This document shows, one piece after another, positions 3,134 through 33,371 of a stretch of 33,641 nt of DNA. The stretch is from a virus, in the UHGV virus genome UHGV-0275541; one strand, 5' to 3'. Made by a program: the position numbers and the translations under genes. The notes beneath the pieces were generated by a model. That model had not been told where the DNA came from. It saw nothing but the letters and a program-made list of their open reading frames with translations, and searched no databases. Each line of letters starts with the position of its first letter. Within the stretch, counting starts at the first letter, position 1.

Positions 3134-3206
3134 GCCGATTTAACTTAGCAGACAAAGCAACTGACTTGTAATCACCGGGTCGCCAGTTCGATTCCGGTAA
3201 TCGGCA
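3134..3206 (+). tRNA. degenerate tRNA-like element (anticodon loop CTTGTAA suggests UGU/Thr); possibly a pseudo-tRNA
   Basis: 7-bp acceptor helix GCCGATT/AATCGGC, U8-A9, T-loop TTCGATT, but 2 mismatches in anticodon stem, 1 in T-stem, and D-loop lacks GG. Hand fold only. Confidence 0.4.
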
Positions 3207-3212
3207 CTATAT

Positions 3213-3287
<75 letters not shown>

Positions 3288-3381
3288 GAGAAACAAGCCT
3301 TATTGTATCGTGGCACTGGCGTATTTTTATTACGTGGGAGCAGGTTGTTTCGAAAAAGCATTCTGTTCTCTGGCTATGATT

Positions 3382-3414
3382 TGAGGCCAGGTTAGCCTCA
3401 GTGCTGATTTTTTT
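3382..3414 (+). terminator. terminator-like hairpin downstream of tRNAs
   Basis: TGAGGC/GCCTCA stem with 7-nt loop, then T-run 3407-3414 after a 5-nt spacer. Confidence 0.45.
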
Positions 3415-3844: not shown

Positions 3845-4237
3845 ATGTCTGAACCCTTATCCGGTTCCGGCACGGCTGCGGCGCTCGGTGGGGCGACGGT
3901 GTACGGGCTGTTTACCGGAACGGATTTCGGGATTGTGTTTGGTGCATTCGCAGGGGCGCTGTTTGTGGCCACGATACCACAGCAGATTTCTGTCTGGCGT
4001 GTGGCAGCGCATTTTCTGGTGTCGTTCATTGTTGGCGTGCTGGGGGCGGATGCGATGGCGTCTTACCTGGTTGAAAAACTGAATCTCCACAGCACATCTC
4101 TCGACGCGCTTTGCGCGGTACTGGTATCGGTGGTGTCGGTGAAGATTCTCTCATTCATCCACCAGCAGGATATCGCATCACTGGTGTCCGGTCTGTTCTC
4201 CCGCCTGCGGGGTGGAGGAGGCGGCAATGTTAAGTAA
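3845..4237 (+). CDS. putative holin (multi-TM membrane protein, first gene of lysis cassette)
   Basis: 130 aa; AGGAG RBS 8 nt upstream; Gly/Ala-rich hydrophobic segments consistent with 3-4 TM helices; sits directly upstream of the endolysin. Confidence 0.55.
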   Translation: MSEPLSGSGTAAALGGATVYGLFTGTDFGIVFGAFAGALFVATIPQQISVWRVAAHFLVSFIVGVLGADAMASYLVEKLNLHSTSLDALCAVLVSVVSVKILSFIHQQDIASLVSGLFSRLRGGGGGNVK

Positions 4238-4505
4238 CCTTCCCGGATTACTGAATGTGGTGTTAAGCACGGTTATCGTGCTGACGCTCTTTTTTTATCG
4301 TCGTGGTGAGTCGAGACATAAACCGCTGATGTCGTGGCTGGCCTGGCTGCTGATGCTGCTTTATGCCTTTGCGCCGCTTTGTTATCTGTGTGGTCGCTTT
4401 CCACCCGGTAACTGGCTGGTCGTCCTGATTAACCTGGTGTTCTGCGTACTGGTGATACGAGCACGCGGGAACGTATCAAAAATCCTTGTATTACGAAGGC
4501 GCTGA
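4227..4505 (+). CDS. small membrane protein of lysis cassette (second holin/antiholin-like)
   Basis: 92 aa from ATG 4227 preceded by GGAGGAGG; about three hydrophobic helices, basic C-terminus (VLRRR); overlaps holin stop and ends 2 nt before endolysin start. Confidence 0.5.
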   Translation: MLSNLPGLLNVVLSTVIVLTLFFYRRGESRHKPLMSWLAWLLMLLYAFAPLCYLCGRFPPGNWLVVLINLVFCVLVIRARGNVSKILVLRRR

Positions 4506-4506
4506 T

Positions 4507-5052
4507 ATGAAGTCGAAAGATGAAATTTTTGACGAAATTCTGGGAAAAGAGGGCGGTTACGTCAATCACCCGGATGATAAAGGTGGTCCGACTAAATGGG
4601 GCATCACTGAAAAAGTTGCCCGTGCACACGGTTATCAGGGCGATATGCGTGACCTGACGCGTGGGCAGGCGCTGGAAATACTCGAGGCGGACTACTGGTA
4701 CGGACCACGATTCGACCAGGTTGAGGACCTGTCTCCTGATATTGCCGCAGAGTTGTGCGATACGGGCGTGAACATGGGGCCAACTGTGGCGTCCAGAATG
4801 CTTCAGCGCTGGCTGAACGTTTTCAACCTGCGCGGGAAACTCTATCCGGATATGGATGCTGATGGACGCATCGGGCCGCGTACTCTTAATGCATTACGGG
4901 CATATCTGAAAAATCGCAGCAGGGATGGTGAACTGGTACTGGTGAAAGCCCTGAACTGTACGCAGGGCGAGCGTTATCTGGAGCTGGCAGAGAAACGCGA
5001 GGCCAATGAGTCGTTTGTCTATGGCTGGATGAAAGAGCGCGTGGTGGTTTAA
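4507..5052 (+). CDS. endolysin, glycoside hydrolase family 108 N-domain with C-terminal peptidoglycan-binding domain
   Basis: 181 aa from ATG 4507 (GAAGG RBS); N-terminal motif EGGYVNHPDDKGGPTKWGIT is the GH108 signature as I recall it; C-terminal half resembles a PG-binding module. Confidence 0.8.
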   Translation: MKSKDEIFDEILGKEGGYVNHPDDKGGPTKWGITEKVARAHGYQGDMRDLTRGQALEILEADYWYGPRFDQVEDLSPDIAAELCDTGVNMGPTVASRMLQRWLNVFNLRGKLYPDMDADGRIGPRTLNALRAYLKNRSRDGELVLVKALNCTQGERYLELAEKREANESFVYGWMKERVVV

Positions 5053-5148
5053 AAACTGACACTGAAGTGCTGAACACCCTCAACTCATGCAGGCTCTTTT
5101 CTGGGGCTACGATGAGCGAAAGTAAGGGGCATAGCATCAGATAGCAAA

Positions 5149-5179
5149 AACCCCGGCTGCGGTAACAGTCCGGGGTTTT
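5149..5179 (+). terminator. intrinsic terminator-like hairpin (copy A of repeated hairpin-RBS module)
   Basis: AACCCCGGCTG / CAG(T)CCGGGGTT stem with a bulge, loop CGGTAA, followed by TTTTCTGTTTCTG. Confidence 0.7.
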
Positions 5180-5212
5180 CTGTTTCTGGCCCTGGGTAAG
5201 GCAAAGGAGAAC

Positions 5213-5320
5213 ATGAGGAAGTATAAACTAATTCTGTTGAGGTTGACTATGAAAAACGGCCTTGAATTGAAAGCGTCTGTAACTGATGACATCAGCAGAG
5301 CGGTGGCTTTTGCCATTTAA
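5213..5320 (+). CDS. small ORF (35 aa) behind conserved AAGGAGA RBS; coding status uncertain
   Basis: ATG 5213 placed 6 nt after AAGGAGA; encodes MRKYKLILLRLTMKNGLELKASVTDDISRAVAFAI; below the ORF-track size cutoff. Confidence 0.3.
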   Translation: MRKYKLILLRLTMKNGLELKASVTDDISRAVAFAI

Positions 5321-5413
5321 GTGGGTGGCGGTCGGTATCGCTGTGTCTCCGATGCTGTATGGGATGGCAAAATTGATCATTGCTGTGAAATCGTAAGTGG
5401 GGCAGGGGTAAAT

Positions 5414-5548
5414 ATGTCAGATAGCATTATAAAACTGGCGCGAATTCTCTGTGTGGTTGTTGGCCTTTCATTTTCAGCAATGTTGGTTGCCATTTTCATT
5501 TCCACCGCCTGGCGAGTATTGAGCTTATCCGGATTGATTGGTGGATAG
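5414..5548 (+). CDS. small single-TM membrane protein (44 aa)
   Basis: ATG 5414 after GGCAGGGG; hydrophobic core ILCVVVGLSFSAMLVAIFISTAW. The longer ORF from 5321 has no RBS support. Confidence 0.35.
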   Translation: MSDSIIKLARILCVVVGLSFSAMLVAIFISTAWRVLSLSGLIGG

Positions 5549-5552
5549 TGAG

Positions 5553-5735
5553 ATGAAGCGAAAACACTGGACACACAGAATGCCGCGAACGGCGGCGAAA
5601 TGGGCACTGGTAGCGATACTGGTGCCTTTTTTCCTGGTGGGATGCGTTAGCCTGGATAAGGCGCGCCAGCTTTTCGATACAGCTTCTCAGGTCTGTGAAA
5701 TTGTCGACGGTGTTCGGCAGTGTATGCAGAACTGA
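5553..5735 (+). CDS. small lipoprotein (candidate o-spanin or superinfection-exclusion lipoprotein)
   Basis: 60 aa from ATG 5553; signal peptide with basic n-region, hydrophobic core ALVAILVPFFLV and lipobox LVGC; short mature part with 3 further Cys. Confidence 0.5.
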   Translation: MKRKHWTHRMPRTAAKWALVAILVPFFLVGCVSLDKARQLFDTASQVCEIVDGVRQCMQN

Positions 5736-5908
5736 TCGCCTGTAAGAGCAGAATATTTTGCTGAAAAATGAAGGATGCGCCTGCGTCCGGAAAGCATGAA
5801 ATTCTGCTGCGTGTGCCAATTTTATCTTATTCATTCTAAATCTTGCCGAATCAAGATGAATTTTGATCAACTGCCTGGCGGCAAGGGGCATTAAAACAGG
5901 AGAAAATT

Positions 5909-21561: not shown

Positions 21562-22568
21562 TGCGTTATTACCGACTGGAAATTATTAATCCTAAAACAG
21601 GCAAGCCGCCAGTGGATAGCAATGGAAAACCCATTGGACCTTTTGATACCAATGAAACACCAGGATGTGGGTTGCATGTTGAATTTGACTTTGAAGTAAC
21701 CGGCCTGGATATAGTCTGTTCGGGTACGATGCTGACGATCTATGGATTACCAATTGACATGCTGAAGCAAAGCGTAAGTTTGCAGGGTTGTCTGGTACGT
21801 ATGAAAGCAGGCTTTGTTCAGGGGTTACCACTGGCAAATAAGGATCAACAGGGGGAGGTAATCTATGGTGAAATTTATCTGGCCTATGCCAACTGGATCG
21901 GCACGAACCAGACTTTAAACCTGGTAATAAATCCAAGCATACGCAAAACCGATGACGGTAAACCTTTTTCAATTGAGGGGCAGGGGGAAGCAGGGGAAAG
22001 GGTGGGCGATGTTTTAGTCCGCGCTTTGCAAAAAGCATATCCCAATAAACTTATTGATTGCACAGTCAGCGACAACCTGGTTTTGCCAGAGCCGTGGACG
22101 GGCAAATATACGGAGATTGGTTCGCTGGCTATGGTCGTAAAAAACGCCTCTATTGCGATGATGCGTAATGAAAGGTATAGCGGAATCGCCATCAGTATTC
22201 TTTCCGACAGAATACGAATCTACGATAACGCATCGGCAAAGTGGGGTGAGCCAAAAACAATTCATGCCCATGAACTGGTCGGGCAGCCGACATGGATAGC
22301 GCCGTTTACCGTCAGTTTCAAATGCCCTATGAGAGGCGATATCAGATGTGGTGATGTGATTAAACTGCCGGAGGGGCTATATTCTGGCGCTGCGTCGATT
22401 GTGATGGCTAATACAACGGTACCCAGCGTTATCGCAAAAAATTCGACCACGTTCACCGGGAAATTTCTTGTGAAATCAGTCAGACACATTGGTTCGTATC
22501 TGACAGCCGATGGCGATGCCTGGGTGACGGTATTTGAGGCATATGCTGAGAACTGGGCGAGGGTGTAA
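21561..22568 (+). CDS. putative baseplate hub-like protein
   Basis: 335 aa; position after tape measure and before spike-like gene; assignment by order only. Confidence 0.4.
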   Translation: MRYYRLEIINPKTGKPPVDSNGKPIGPFDTNETPGCGLHVEFDFEVTGLDIVCSGTMLTIYGLPIDMLKQSVSLQGCLVRMKAGFVQGLPLANKDQQGEVIYGEIYLAYANWIGTNQTLNLVINPSIRKTDDGKPFSIEGQGEAGERVGDVLVRALQKAYPNKLIDCTVSDNLVLPEPWTGKYTEIGSLAMVVKNASIAMMRNERYSGIAISILSDRIRIYDNASAKWGEPKTIHAHELVGQPTWIAPFTVSFKCPMRGDIRCGDVIKLPEGLYSGAASIVMANTTVPSVIAKNSTTFTGKFLVKSVRHIGSYLTADGDAWVTVFEAYAENWARV

Positions 22569-23281
22569 TGTCAAACGCTCAAAAATTACCGTTTCTCCGA
22601 ACACTGTCGGAGATGATGACCAGTTCTGGTAACCAGCAAGCCGAGCTTAAAGGCCGCGAATTGCCCTGCCATGTTGTCGGTGTCAGCGGGCAGATAGTGA
22701 CAGTTCAGTTTGATATGCTGCCGGAGGGGATCAACTTTCCGCAGATAACAATCCCTGTCGCCACATTCCCGTATATTCGTTACCCGATACAGCCGGGCGA
22801 TCGAGGAGTAACAATTGCCGCTGATGTATCCCTGCGCGGTGTGTCCGGATTGGGAACCGGTATGGCGACGCTCTCTTACTCGATGTCGCTCACTCCACTG
22901 TTTTTCGTGCCACTGGCAAACAAGGACTGGTCCGACGAAGATCCGCAAAAAATCGTTTTGTACGGTCCGGATGGCGCGATCCTCAAAACAGAGGACGGCA
23001 GTAGCTCGGTAACGGTGGCACCGGAAGAAATCAGGCAAAAGTCGAAAGCTGTTTACCTCGAGGCCGAAGATATTTTCCTGAACGGGAAAATTCACCTCAA
23101 CGGTCCAATCGTCCAGGACAAAGCCCAGATGAAGGATACAACCGCTTCGCTGATTGGCCCGCTTACTGTGCAAAATGACGCGGTGATAAAAGGTGTCAGT
23201 GCCAGCGGCCACAGCCACGATGTGACTGGCGTTCAAAGCGGCGGCAGCACGATCACGTCGAAGCAACCAAATCGGGGTTAA
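22568..23281 (+). CDS. putative baseplate spike/assembly protein (gpV-like)
   Basis: 237 aa; ATG overlaps previous TAA; size and position consistent with a baseplate spike; Gly/Ser-rich C-terminus. Confidence 0.4.
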   Translation: MSNAQKLPFLRTLSEMMTSSGNQQAELKGRELPCHVVGVSGQIVTVQFDMLPEGINFPQITIPVATFPYIRYPIQPGDRGVTIAADVSLRGVSGLGTGMATLSYSMSLTPLFFVPLANKDWSDEDPQKIVLYGPDGAILKTEDGSSSVTVAPEEIRQKSKAVYLEAEDIFLNGKIHLNGPIVQDKAQMKDTTASLIGPLTVQNDAVIKGVSASGHSHDVTGVQSGGSTITSKQPNRG

Positions 23282-23321
23282 TTCCGGTTCATTTCACTTT
23301 AAATTCTATCTCATAAAGCGA

Positions 23322-23356
23322 AAGCCCCGGCTGCTGGAACAGTTCGGGGCTTTTTG
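23322..23356 (+). terminator. intrinsic terminator-like hairpin (copy B of repeated hairpin-RBS module)
   Basis: GCCCCGGCTG / CAG(TT)CGGGGC stem, loop CTGGAA, followed by TTTTTGTTTCTG; about 80% identical to 5149-5215 over about 70 bp. Confidence 0.65.
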
Positions 23357-23387
23357 TTTCTGACCTTGAATAAGGCAAGGAGAAGTC

Positions 23388-23525
23388 GTGTTTGATTTTA
23401 GCAAACTGATTCGGGAGATTCGAGTTATGGCTGAAAAATTATCCACCTGGAAGTTTTTGCTTATTTGGTTGGTCTTTCTGATTCTGGCGTCTGGTTATTT
23501 TGTTGGCCAGATCCGATGGTGGTGA
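23388..23525 (+). CDS. small ORF (45 aa, GTG start) encoding a hydrophobic peptide; coding status uncertain
   Basis: GTG 23388 placed after the conserved AAGGAGAAG RBS of module copy B; encodes ...KFLLIWLVFLILASGYFVGQIRWW. Confidence 0.3.
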   Translation: MFDFSKLIREIRVMAEKLSTWKFLLIWLVFLILASGYFVGQIRWW

Positions 23526-23532
23526 GGGCACG

Positions 23533-23880
23533 ATGAGAACATGGGGCCGCGTCACCGACGCGAACGGCAACAAAAAATGGGTTGCAGTAGAATCTGACGC
23601 CAACGGTGATTTCTCCTACGGCTGGTTGACGACGCTCATTCAGACGTTAAAGCTGGGATTGGGGGAGTCGCCGTTTTACGCGAATTACGGTATTCCTGCG
23701 CAGCAGTGCATCGTGCAGCAGATTTACCCAGACTACTATGTGAACATGGTTCAGCAACAGTTTGCCGGGTATTTTGCATCGCTGGCAATTTCAAAGGTAG
23801 ATGGGGCAGCGAACCCCACCTATAACATCGATGTTGTGTTTTTTAATGGGACCAGTTACCGGACGCAGGTGCCGGTATGA
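23533..23880 (+). CDS. phage baseplate-region hypothetical protein
   Basis: 115 aa from ATG 23533 (ORF track starts at 23500); position between spike-like and J-like baseplate genes. Confidence 0.45.
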   Translation: MRTWGRVTDANGNKKWVAVESDANGDFSYGWLTTLIQTLKLGLGESPFYANYGIPAQQCIVQQIYPDYYVNMVQQQFAGYFASLAISKVDGAANPTYNIDVVFFNGTSYRTQVPV

Positions 23881-24003: not shown

Positions 24004-24030
24004 CATATTGTTACCATGGAGGAGACAAGT

Positions 24031-25191
24031 ATGGAAAATTTTGCAAATAAGTTAAAAATACACACAGAGCATGTTGCAAAAATGGGGGTGTTTTGTACAA
24101 CTGAAGAAACGACAAAACAAGCACTCATTATGCCATTACTAGATATTCTTGGTTTTACTCCGTATGATCCAAGAAAAGTCAAAGCTGAGTATAGTGCTGA
24201 CTTCCCCGGGGTTAAGGCTAATGAACGGGTTGATTACGCTTTATTTTGTCATGATGTTCCTGTGATGTTCATTGAGGCGAAATCGTTTTCAGAACAAATT
24301 GATAATCACTGCCCACAGCTATCAAGATATTTTAATTCAACACCGGAAGTTACTATATCAGCCATTACAAATGGTGTTGAATGGCGTTTTTTTACGGATT
24401 TGAAACAAAAAAACATAATGGATTCAACGCCGTTTTTAAAAATAAGAATGGATTCTCTAACTCACTCCGATATTACACAATTATTTCGTTTTCGTTATGA
24501 TAAATTCAAACCAGAGGCTTTACGGACACTGGCTGAAGAAAGTGTTTATTTGAATTCATTTACTAAAACAATCAGTTCTAGTCTTCGTGAAGTTGATCTG
24601 GAGTTTGTTCGATATGTTGCTAGTCGTTCAAATATTGAGAGACAACTTAATCAGAGATTTCTTGAGTTCGTGACTCCATTAGTTAAACAGGCCGTTGAGC
24701 GCGCTGTTAGCGCAATGGTGGTTTCCGGGCTATCTACACAACCGGTAGAGCAAACTAAAGAAAATGATGCAACGGATACACAAGTTAATAACGCCATTGT
24801 TGATGAAGAAAACCCCAACATAATAACCACAGCCAAAGAATTGGAGCTATTTGAAAGGGTAAAACAAATCATACAAACAGAAGATAATATAGAATATAAA
24901 GATACTGAGTCATATTTTGGTGTACTATTGAATGGTAAAACTAATAGATGGCTGTTAAGATTTTATGATAAAAAATCTTCATTTATAACTTTACCTATTT
25001 CGCTTAGTGAAGTTCAGTTGAATGAAATAAGACGAGCTCGACTTGATACGGATGGTAAAAGGATACATATAACTAATCCGGAAGATATACTTCGCATATC
25101 TGGTTTGATTCTGGATTCATACGAGTATGTTAAAAATGATGATAATTTCCGCCGAGGGTCCAGAGCGAGTAGTTTAGAAGAGGTTGAATAA
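24031..25191 (+). CDS. stand-alone PD-(D/E)xK nuclease-like protein resembling the N-terminal domain of type I restriction HsdR (HsdR-N-like)
   Basis: 386 aa from ATG 24031 (GGAGGAG RBS; alternative ATG 24016); motifs TTKQALIMPLLDILGF and ERVDYALF...VMFIEAKS match the HsdR N-terminal nuclease pattern (ADYVLF...VVEAKR in EcoKI HsdR as I recall it); AT-rich codon usage unlike flanking genes. Confidence 0.6.
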   Translation: MENFANKLKIHTEHVAKMGVFCTTEETTKQALIMPLLDILGFTPYDPRKVKAEYSADFPGVKANERVDYALFCHDVPVMFIEAKSFSEQIDNHCPQLSRYFNSTPEVTISAITNGVEWRFFTDLKQKNIMDSTPFLKIRMDSLTHSDITQLFRFRYDKFKPEALRTLAEESVYLNSFTKTISSSLREVDLEFVRYVASRSNIERQLNQRFLEFVTPLVKQAVERAVSAMVVSGLSTQPVEQTKENDATDTQVNNAIVDEENPNIITTAKELELFERVKQIIQTEDNIEYKDTESYFGVLLNGKTNRWLLRFYDKKSSFITLPISLSEVQLNEIRRARLDTDGKRIHITNPEDILRISGLILDSYEYVKNDDNFRRGSRASSLEEVE

Positions 25192-25193
25192 GT

Positions 25194-25219
25194 AAAAAAC
25201 CCGCGAAAGCGGGTTTTTT
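25194..25219. terminator. bidirectional intrinsic terminator after the nuclease-like gene
   Basis: A6-CCCGC-GAAA-GCGGG-T6. Confidence 0.85.
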
Positions 25220-33196: not shown

Positions 33197-33250
33197 CCCG
33201 TAAATGCTCACATCTGGAGTCGTAGTGAACGTCTTTTGGGCCTGAAAAGT

Positions 33251-33286
33251 AAATCCCCAGTTGTTGCTGACAACTGGGGATTTTTA
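33251..33286. terminator. strong bidirectional intrinsic terminator closing the two-gene operon
   Basis: 10-bp stem TCCCCAGTTG(33254-33263)/CAACTGGGGA(33271-33280), 7-nt loop, T5; A-run upstream. Confidence 0.85.
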
Positions 33287-33371
33287 AAACAGCATATAAA
33301 TCGTAAAGGATATTGTCATATGCCTTATTCAAGAACGTGCTGAGGTTGAGAAGTTTTGGAATTTTTTCGGT

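Follow-up and report, generated by a model that had tools for sequence, protein, structure and literature searches.

A repeated terminator-plus-leader module with a putative sar-like antisense RNA at the head of small membrane-protein genes in a lambdoid prophage

The virus genome UHGV-0275541 was analysed over a stretch of 33,641 nucleotides (nt), hereafter the window, a lambdoid prophage that has Rac-SA53, phage vB_Apl-pPE4 and phiP27 among its relatives. The window carries two copies (A and B) of an intergenic module, each of which consists of a GC-rich hairpin and a leader that ends at the start codon of a small open reading frame (ORF). We are confident that this module is a selected bidirectional terminator-plus-leader unit of a mobile cassette. 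On balance we also favour the reading that a cis-acting antisense RNA of the type of sar in phage P22 and the bidirectional terminator together hold the small membrane protein off. What is new here is the match between this layout and the arc-ant gap of P22, which we read, with the same modest confidence, as the mark of a sar-like antisense cassette for small membrane-protein genes.

A repeated hairpin and leader

A repeat search of the window recovered copies A (5137-5204) and B (23311-23378) as an ungapped 68-nt match with 81% identity, and this pair is the only long dispersed repeat outside low-complexity coding regions. By blastn of copy A against the window, the match extends over 75 nt (5137-5211 versus 23311-23384; 81.3% identity, one gap, E = 4.7e-15). 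In ungapped comparison the two copies match at 55 of 68 positions, whereas the runner-up 68-mer on either strand of the whole window matches at 35 of 68 (z = 10.2). Furthermore, a degenerate pattern derived from the 3' half matches the window exactly twice and gave no match across 100 shuffles. A sequence-only reading of this DNA had described two segments of about 80% identity some 18 kb apart, and the computational alignment upholds that description, with similarity above background. The GC stem with its bulge, the T-rich tail and the AAGGAG Shine-Dalgarno (SD) sequence are likewise present as had been described, and the idea of a shared cassette of hairpin and ribosome-binding site, which joins a terminator to translation initiation, is borne out. 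Both copies are intergenic, and their identity ends at the start codons of the ORFs that follow (ATG at 5213 for copy A and GTG at 23388 for copy B); beyond these codons the sequences diverge, as had also been claimed, into ORF families without detectable homology. The parts of the two copies are as follows.

5137-5212: copy A, whole conserved block (A-rich flank, hairpin, T-tract and leader with SD), 81% identical to 23311-23387
5146-5180: copy A, bidirectional terminator hairpin with flanks AAAAA and TTTT, which folds on both strands
5151-5175: copy A, GC stem CCCCGGCTG/CAG-T-CCGGGG with loop CGGTAA
5176-5212, plus strand: copy A, sense T-tract TTTTCTGTTTCTG and leader, with SD AAGGAG at 5204-5209
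23311-23387: copy B, whole conserved block
23321-23353: copy B, bidirectional terminator hairpin, which folds on both strands
23324-23350: copy B, GC stem GCCCCGGCTG/CAG-TT-CGGGGC with loop CTGGAA
23351-23387, plus strand: copy B, sense T-tract TTTTTGTTTCTG and leader, with SD AAGGAG at 23377-23382

On the sense strand, the stems are followed by the tails GGGG-UUUUCUGUUUCUG in copy A and GGGGC-UUUUUGUUUCUG in copy B, and on the antisense strand by GGGG-UUUUUGCU and GGGGC-UUUCGCUUUAU, respectively. A conserved A-rich tract on one side of the hairpin and a T-rich tract on the other thus yield a U-rich run on both strands, and this arrangement is found in all variants of the family. Covariation was analysed in 42 family variants, from which a covariance model of the module was also built. 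Compensatory double changes occur at five pairs of the main stem, including replacement of A-U by G-C in 11 sequences and the use of U-A, C-G and G-C at one inner pair, and copies A and B themselves differ in a compensatory manner at the base of the stem (A:T in one and G:C in the other). Stem covariation together with the conserved U-tracts indicates selection on RNA structure rather than mere homology, which agrees with what the sequence-only reading had suspected. The module covariance model scores 78.6 bits on the minus strand of copy A (5131-5213) and 77.9 bits on that of copy B (23305-23387).

Within the stem of the terminator, G-U wobble cells number 6 versus 10 of 501 between the two strands, which reveals no strand bias. 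Assignment of the strand by wobble counts was dropped for this reason, and also because the result for the 5' stem was circular, its structure having been predicted on the minus strand. With its A-tract and T-tract flanks and its unbiased wobble, the hairpin best fits the description of a bidirectional intrinsic terminator. The best-conserved part of the family is the 30 nt from the hairpin to the start codon, which includes AAGGAG. A short second stem-loop is predicted in this leader, with hairpins that overlap the SD in most variants; in copy B, the predicted hairpin is CCUUG(AAUAAGG)CAAGG. We also considered whether the minus strand encodes a peptide. A frame is open through both window copies and ends at the same stop, but relatives carry 1-nt insertions or deletions and lack that stop, and these single-base changes in the leader therefore exclude coding on either strand.

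The opposite strand and the sar locus of P22

The sequence-only reading was right to see a structured cassette at mosaic joints, but it overlooked the opposite strand, on which the layout resembles that of sar and a -10-like element is found. The sar RNA negatively regulates Ant by base pairing with ant mRNA (PMC13397905; PMC2629481, citing Liao/Wu 1987). Rfam maps sar (RF00262) to the minus strand of the P22 sequence X01916 at 599-532. Since the arc stop codon lies at 529-531 and the ATG of ant begins at 600, the 68-nt RNA fills the gap between the two genes to the base. The conserved blocks of the window (5137-5212 and 23311-23387) share this geometry, in that they end at start codons and begin beyond the antisense U-tract of the hairpin, by a few nt in the A/B comparison. 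The hairpins of copy A and P22 sar have 22 of 26 bases in common, including an exact 14-mer, CTGCGGTAACAGTC. The P22 sense strand reads AGTTGAAGCCCCAACTGCGGTAACAGTCAGGGCTTCGG...GGAGAAAAACCAAC followed by ATGAATAGTATAGCAA, and that of copy A reads GCAAAAACCCCGGCTGCGGTAACAGTCCGGGGTTTTCT...AAGGAGAAC followed by ATGAGGAAGTATAAAC, with 32 nt from hairpin to start codon in P22 and 34 nt in copy A. The P22 arc-ant gap and the module therefore present the same order of elements, which is a hairpin, an SD leader of about 32 nt, a start codon and an opposite-strand -10 in codons 3-5.

Just inside the ORF, TATACT is found on the opposite strand in both P22 and copy A. In P22, the -10 of Psar is TGCTATACT, which is TG-extended and lies at ORF positions +7 to +12; copy B shares with it the extended -10 TTGCTA-A-T. 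The predicted elements on the minus strand of the window are as follows.

5220-5249, minus strand: copy A, predicted antisense promoter from the promoter scan, with -10 TATACT at 5225-5220, -35-like TAGTCA at 5249-5244 and an 18-nt spacer
23395-23403, minus strand: copy B, predicted antisense promoter with extended -10 TGCTAAAAT at +8 to +13
5143-5212, minus strand: copy A, predicted sar-like antisense RNA of about 70 nt, with its 5' G opposite C5212 and its 3' end in the U-tract after the hairpin
23316-23387, minus strand: copy B, putative sar-like antisense RNA of about 72 nt

The hexamer keeps its place across the family. An antisense TAnnnT is found at +7 to +12 in 10 of 10 sar-type haplotypes, nine of which have the TG extension, and a hexamer is found at +8 to +13 in every haplotype of the family with a 60-amino acid (aa) ORF (TATACT, TATAAT or TACACT) and in every haplotype of the 45-aa family (TGC-TAAAAT, TAATAT or TAAGAT). 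Among the 45-aa haplotypes, TTAGCAA is invariant and the weakly constrained middle of the hexamer varies. A further family, in which the ORF is only four codons long, has TAATAT on the antisense strand at +9 to +14, where protein coding therefore cannot explain it. A spacing of 6-7 nt from the -10 would place the antisense start beside the start codon, as in sar, and the block conserved between copies A and B coincides with the predicted antisense transcript to within a few bases. Such a transcript would account both for the exact end of conservation at the start codon and for the conserved A-tract on the 5' side of the hairpin. The two predicted RNAs adopt the fold of P22 sar, in which a stem-loop at the 5' end is joined by a short linker to the terminator; the values are -27.8 kcal/mol and z = -3.0 for copy A, -24.3 kcal/mol and z = -3.5 for copy B, and z = -5.6 for sar.

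When IMG/VR was scanned for the 14-mer with a filter for hairpin context, two groups were recovered, sar-type loci and the copy A-type module. The sar-type loci lie upstream of diverse ant-like genes and feature an invariant hairpin, varied leaders and the motif ATGnnnAGT(A/T)TAGCAA. Constraint is thus reversed between the groups, in that the leader of the module is nearly invariant and its inner stem and loop vary. The module also differs from sar in its target, which is a membrane protein of 45-60 aa instead of an antirepressor, without arc or mnt; in its location, which is a lysis cassette or baseplate cluster instead of the mnt-arc-ant region of immI; and in its sense-direction U-tract, which sar lacks.

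Based on these comparisons, we propose that copies A and B act as regulatory heads of small mobile gene cassettes, which a lambdoid prophage carries in its Q-antiterminated late operon. The GC hairpin with its A-tract and T-tract, an anatomy that is observed, is predicted to terminate transcription in both directions, and it is followed by a leader of about 32 nt, a strong SD and the start codon of a 45-60-aa protein with a C-terminal transmembrane (TM) segment. By analogy with sar and from the partial homology, an antisense promoter in codons 3-5 would drive an RNA of about 70 nt that extends across the SD as far as the hairpin. By pairing with the leader, it would keep ribosomes from binding; stray read-through in the lysogen would be halted by the sense-direction terminator, and the small membrane protein would be made only from the abundant Q-modified late transcripts. 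Copies A and B would belong to related cassettes that inserted independently, A behind the endolysin gene and B between the baseplate genes V and W.

Downstream genes, setting and spread of the family

The genes headed by the two copies, and the whole insert that contains copy B, are as follows.

5213-5396, plus strand: target ORF of copy A, 60-aa C-terminal-TM family phrog_1115, frameshifted
23388-23525, plus strand: target ORF of copy B, 45 aa, GTG start, C-terminal TM, phrog_6632
23282-23532, plus strand: whole inserted cassette between the V-like and W-like genes, 251 nt

The claim that small hydrophobic ORFs follow both copies stands, with the correction that the copy A gene is a frameshifted 60-aa gene. 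It has an extra T near 5316-5318, such that 35 aa are encoded in frame 1 and the remainder in frame 2; the site reads GCCATTTAAGTGG in the window versus GCCATTAAGTGG in intact IMG/VR relatives, and the change is either a pseudogene lesion or a sequencing error. Each of the 120 database relatives of the 60-aa protein bears the name 'hypothetical' and comes from Escherichia or Salmonella, and annotated homologues of the copy B ORF are rac58 of Rac-SA53 and SEN34_23. Homology between the two protein families was considered and rejected (hhalign probability 1.3%); they share topology only, which is a short cytoplasmic N-terminus and a C-terminal TM segment. Neither protein has a Pfam match, and phrog_1115 and phrog_6632 carry no assigned PHROG function.

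Upstream of copy A, the window encodes a Q-like antiterminator (664-1326), which is followed by a terminator (1407-1433), and internal terminators would therefore be tolerable. Between the antiterminator gene and copy A lie two tRNA genes, two holin genes and a GH108 endolysin gene (4486-5052). The tRNA genes (3134-3206 and 3213-3284) have a DNA methylase gene on one side and the holins on the other, an arrangement shared with phiP27-like and Stx phages. Copy A lies 96 nt past the endolysin stop codon and is followed by four small ORFs and the gene for the small terminase subunit. Those 3' of the copy A target include a gene for a 44-aa TM protein (5414-5548) and one for a 60-aa lipoprotein with an LVGC lipobox (5553-5735, phrog_7528, which has no assigned function), and no canonical Rz/Rz1 spanin pair was seen between endolysin and terminase in the window. 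The sequence AGCAGAATATTTTGCTGAAAAATGA, which in Stx-type prophages directly follows the endolysin gene (Sakai Sp10 stretch 785-810), occurs here at 5747-5771. Because it appears only after the small-ORF cluster, the comparison suggests that 5053-5740, which comprises the module and four small ORFs, is an insert at the old 3' junction of the endolysin gene.

Copy B lies 40 nt past a baseplate-V-like gene (22568-23281), and on its 3' side come the 45-aa ORF and then a W-like gene (23533-23880). The insert is absent from Klebsiella phage Chronis and Shewanella phage QDWS, whose V and W homologues abut or share an overlap, which identifies 23282-23532 as an inserted cassette. At both sites, after the endolysin gene for copy A and between V and W for copy B, the module forms the left boundary of a small inserted cassette. 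The proposal that the module sits at mosaic joints is thus supported by the different ORF families downstream, the two genomic contexts and the tail-module relatives that lack the V-W insert. Elsewhere in the tail operon, the region 24016-25219, 3' of the W-like gene in the baseplate cluster, holds an inserted 391-aa gene whose product has a type I restriction HSDR_N domain, and this gene is followed by a strong terminator at 25194-25219; Rac-SA53 has minus-strand ant and other genes at this spot, which is therefore a second moron site. At 33245-33283 lies a further hairpin with an A-tract, GC stem and T-tract, TCCCCAGTTGTTGCTGACAACTGGGGA, to which the module covariance model assigns 27-28 bits on either strand and which looks like a generic bidirectional terminator that ends the tail-fibre region.

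An IMG/VR scan together with reference phages yielded at least 127 module instances and at least 48 sequence variants. With a 91-nt query, at least one copy was found in 2089 of 5426 complete E. coli genomes (about 39%), at 3969 places and with a maximum of 8 per genome. Among the 127 matches listed, the upstream gene is an R21-like lysozyme in 92, a GH108 endolysin in 8 and one of two baseplate-V families in 11 and 5, with other genes in the rest. The module lies between endolysin and Rz in Salmonella phages SPN3UB and FSL SP-016, between R and Rz in Stx-type E. coli phages (GER2, PhiR5_2), and between a different baseplate-V gene and a W-like gene in SEN34. At least three unrelated sequences follow it, namely the 60-aa family phrog_1115, the 45-aa family phrog_6632 and the four-codon stub. 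In the GER2-type variant (GER2 stretch 2538-2575; about 30 IMG/VR loci), a 27-nt insert forms an eight-codon mini-ORF, MGREVLSL, with its own GGGAGG/TCCC hairpin, and its stop codon overlaps, within GTGA, the GTG start of a 60-aa-type ORF. This overlap suggests that a leader peptide couples its translation to that of the ORF.

In Sakai prophages Sp5, Sp6, Sp10, Sp12 and Sp15, an antirepressor gene and a 48-aa ORF occupy the endolysin-Rz site and the module is absent. By this comparison, the endolysin-Rz slot alternates between an ant cassette and the putative sar-like small-ORF cassette. The module is not annotated in any inspected record and is absent from Rfam, and a full-text literature search by sequence string returned no match to the leader in either orientation.

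Related systems, alternative explanations and implications

Several described systems share parts of this arrangement. The IsrK-orf45-anrP locus of Gifsy-1 resembles the module in that a prophage terminator hairpin stands tens of nt before a small ORF whose ribosome-binding site lies in a hairpin (PMC4825925), and its read-through transcripts are translationally silent (PMC4825925). Unlike the module, its regulator is a sense-strand small RNA (sRNA) that acts as an activator in trans, and orf45 couples to an antirepressor-like gene; the locus shows no sequence or Rfam match to the module. In type I toxin-antitoxin systems (symE/SymR, ibs/Sib, shoB/OhsC), the start of a small hydrophobic protein gene is covered by an antisense RNA, as is predicted here, whereas the gene of the module is co-oriented within a phage late operon and does not stand alone. 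Matches of the Rfam ohsC model at the module are sub-threshold and driven by the terminator only. Like a lambdoid moron, the cassette is an additional small gene unit that separates two otherwise neighbouring late genes, is missing from relatives and has a terminator at its flank. In the module, this terminator lies upstream instead of downstream of the gene, and no promoter-like site was detected on the sense strand near copy A or B.

The antisense sRNAs of lambdoid late regions (PMC4104026; PMC8550237; bioRxiv 10.64898/2026.05.13.724894), which include AsxR/AgvB and PasB/EcOnc22-24, are similarly short, terminator-ended RNAs against the late operon that are intergenic and present in multiple diverged copies per genome. 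They differ from the module in sequence and in site, which is the moron site after pR' or the I-J tail junction, and they are Hfq-dependent, act in trans on core-genome targets and do not lie over the SD of an adjacent small ORF. Rfam AgvB and AsxR have no match in the window. EcOnc22-24 resemble PasB and lie near the I-J tail junction, and EcOnc11 is located 3' of Rz in a prophage that lacks the module. In the I-J gap of Sakai Sp11 (stretch 3337-3396, 3170-3250), we observed a PasB/EcOnc22-24-like terminator, AATCCCGCAG...CTGCGGG, and antisense sRNAs inside structural operons therefore have precedent. Another arrangement of hairpin, TTTTCTGG and SD is found just before J in Sp11. The EcOnc coordinates in Table S2 of Tree et al. 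2014 appear to be offset by about +142 nt relative to NC_002695.2 near stx2B, a value derived from the stated 282-bp distance of AsxR to stx2AB, and use of the published positions thus calls for a correction.

A number of observations weigh against an antisense RNA of the sar type. The -10-like hexamers sit in AT-rich N-terminal codons, where coding or translation could maintain them. The promoter of copy A lacks a TG extension and has a weak -35, and its 9-of-12 match is of a kind expected about once by chance in the 900-nt scan. Beyond the hairpin, the leaders of sar and the module can barely be aligned, and the 27-nt insert of the GER2-type variant shifts the putative antisense promoter farther off. 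The published prophage sRNAs (EcOnc table of Tree 2014, Pas probes) proved to be different elements from the module, which also counts against the reading; the check is not decisive, because the five Sakai prophages examined carry the ant cassette and not the module. The second stem-loop, which would form the 5' stem-loop of the antisense RNA, shows no double-sided covariation across the 42 variants. The Rfam sar model scores 23.2 bits (5143-5228) and 17.7 bits (23317-23384) on the minus strand, below the gathering score of 43, and it scores 97.8 on P22 and 85.7, 73.5, 48.2, 46.8 and 46.0 bits on other sar loci. At 18-23 bits, as opposed to 46-86 for sar-type loci, the window copies therefore fall outside the curated family and appear as the tail of a graded series. 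Conversely, the module covariance model gives 27 bits on P22 sar (E about 3e-5) and 28 bits on the unrelated terminator at 33235-33315, such that the similarity of profiles is not specific, and we did not count it as evidence for a link. At the gathering threshold, an Rfam scan of the window recovered two tRNAs only. Scans by E-value gave sub-threshold matches (rimP leader, sar, ohsC, F6), mostly driven by the terminator, and the module was thus not assigned to a known RNA family; sar is among the best of these on the minus strand of both copies. We consider the module probably a distant relative of sar.

The module could instead act on the sense strand only, as a terminator or attenuator of the upstream gene followed by the 5' untranslated region (UTR) of the small ORF, with a hairpin that masks the SD (TTTCT..CCTTG / CAAGG..AGAA) and no antisense RNA. 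The sense strand does have a good stem and T-tract, SD-overlapping hairpins are predicted in most variants, the Q-like antiterminator of the window phage could read through, and IsrK-orf45 provides an example of a terminator about 29 nt before a structured small-ORF ribosome-binding site (PMC4825925). The near invariance of the leader would then reflect the recent spread of a cassette. This explanation leaves the conserved A-rich tract 5' of the stem without a role, accounts neither for the opposite-strand -10 hexamers at a fixed offset in unrelated families, including the four-codon one, nor for the match to the sar locus, and invokes a second hairpin without compensatory changes; we regard it as possible but doubtful. 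A further proposal is a trans-acting sRNA on the sense strand, processed from the 3' UTR of the mRNA for the endolysin or V, with the hairpin as its 3' end. About 95 nt between the endolysin stop and the copy A hairpin are non-coding, and prophage late regions are rich in terminator-ended sRNAs (PMC4104026; bioRxiv 10.64898/2026.05.13.724894), but copy B has only about 40 nt there, no Rfam sRNA family matches, and neither the two copies nor the different families show conservation on the 5' side of the hairpin. An sRNA of this origin is highly unlikely because conservation lies 3' of the hairpin, outside such an RNA.

The 70 nt may also serve as a patch of homology through which lambdoid phages exchange small-gene cassettes, with any RNA function secondary. 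This is consistent with a module that is joined to at least three unrelated downstream sequences and at least four different upstream genes, with a 45-aa ORF that occurs in both lysis and baseplate contexts, and with the Stx prophages, in which the similarity to variants with the ant cassette is lost right at the 5' edge of the hairpin stem. However, the compensatory changes in the stem and the conserved U-tracts point to RNA structure, and no matching right-hand boundary sequence was seen after the ORFs. As the primary function, a recombination linker is thus unlikely; as a secondary role, a recombination site is possible, and it is compatible with the other explanations. For a target of an RNA-binding protein or RNase, which the sequence-only reading had also listed, the analysis yielded arguments neither in favour nor against. 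A broader version of the sar-like antisense reading, which we consider rather unlikely, holds that a large family of such RNAs also acts in trans and forms a cross-immunity or addiction network in lysis cassettes and tail operons. A resident prophage or cassette could then silence the small-protein genes of other cassettes and of incoming or co-resident phages, and the 45-60-aa proteins could be toxic or lysis-timing effectors in a system like type I toxin-antitoxin within late operons. The nearly invariant body complementary to the leader would be what allows action in trans, and the lysis cassettes concerned would include those of Shiga-toxin phages.

If the antisense RNA is not made, the module would still be a useful marker of the points at which cassettes insert into late operons, and would otherwise be ordinary. 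It is in any case very widespread, often in several copies per genome, and is also found between the endolysin and spanin genes of Shiga-toxin-type phages, which are of medical relevance. If the cis-acting antisense reading is correct, the phrog_1115 and phrog_6632 proteins would be under a double lock, which would point to roles in lysis timing, exclusion or toxicity, and annotators would gain a 70-nt signature by which to recognise a non-coding gene that Rfam lacks. Furthermore, sar would represent one branch of a common design of enterobacterial prophages instead of a curiosity of the P22 immunity region.

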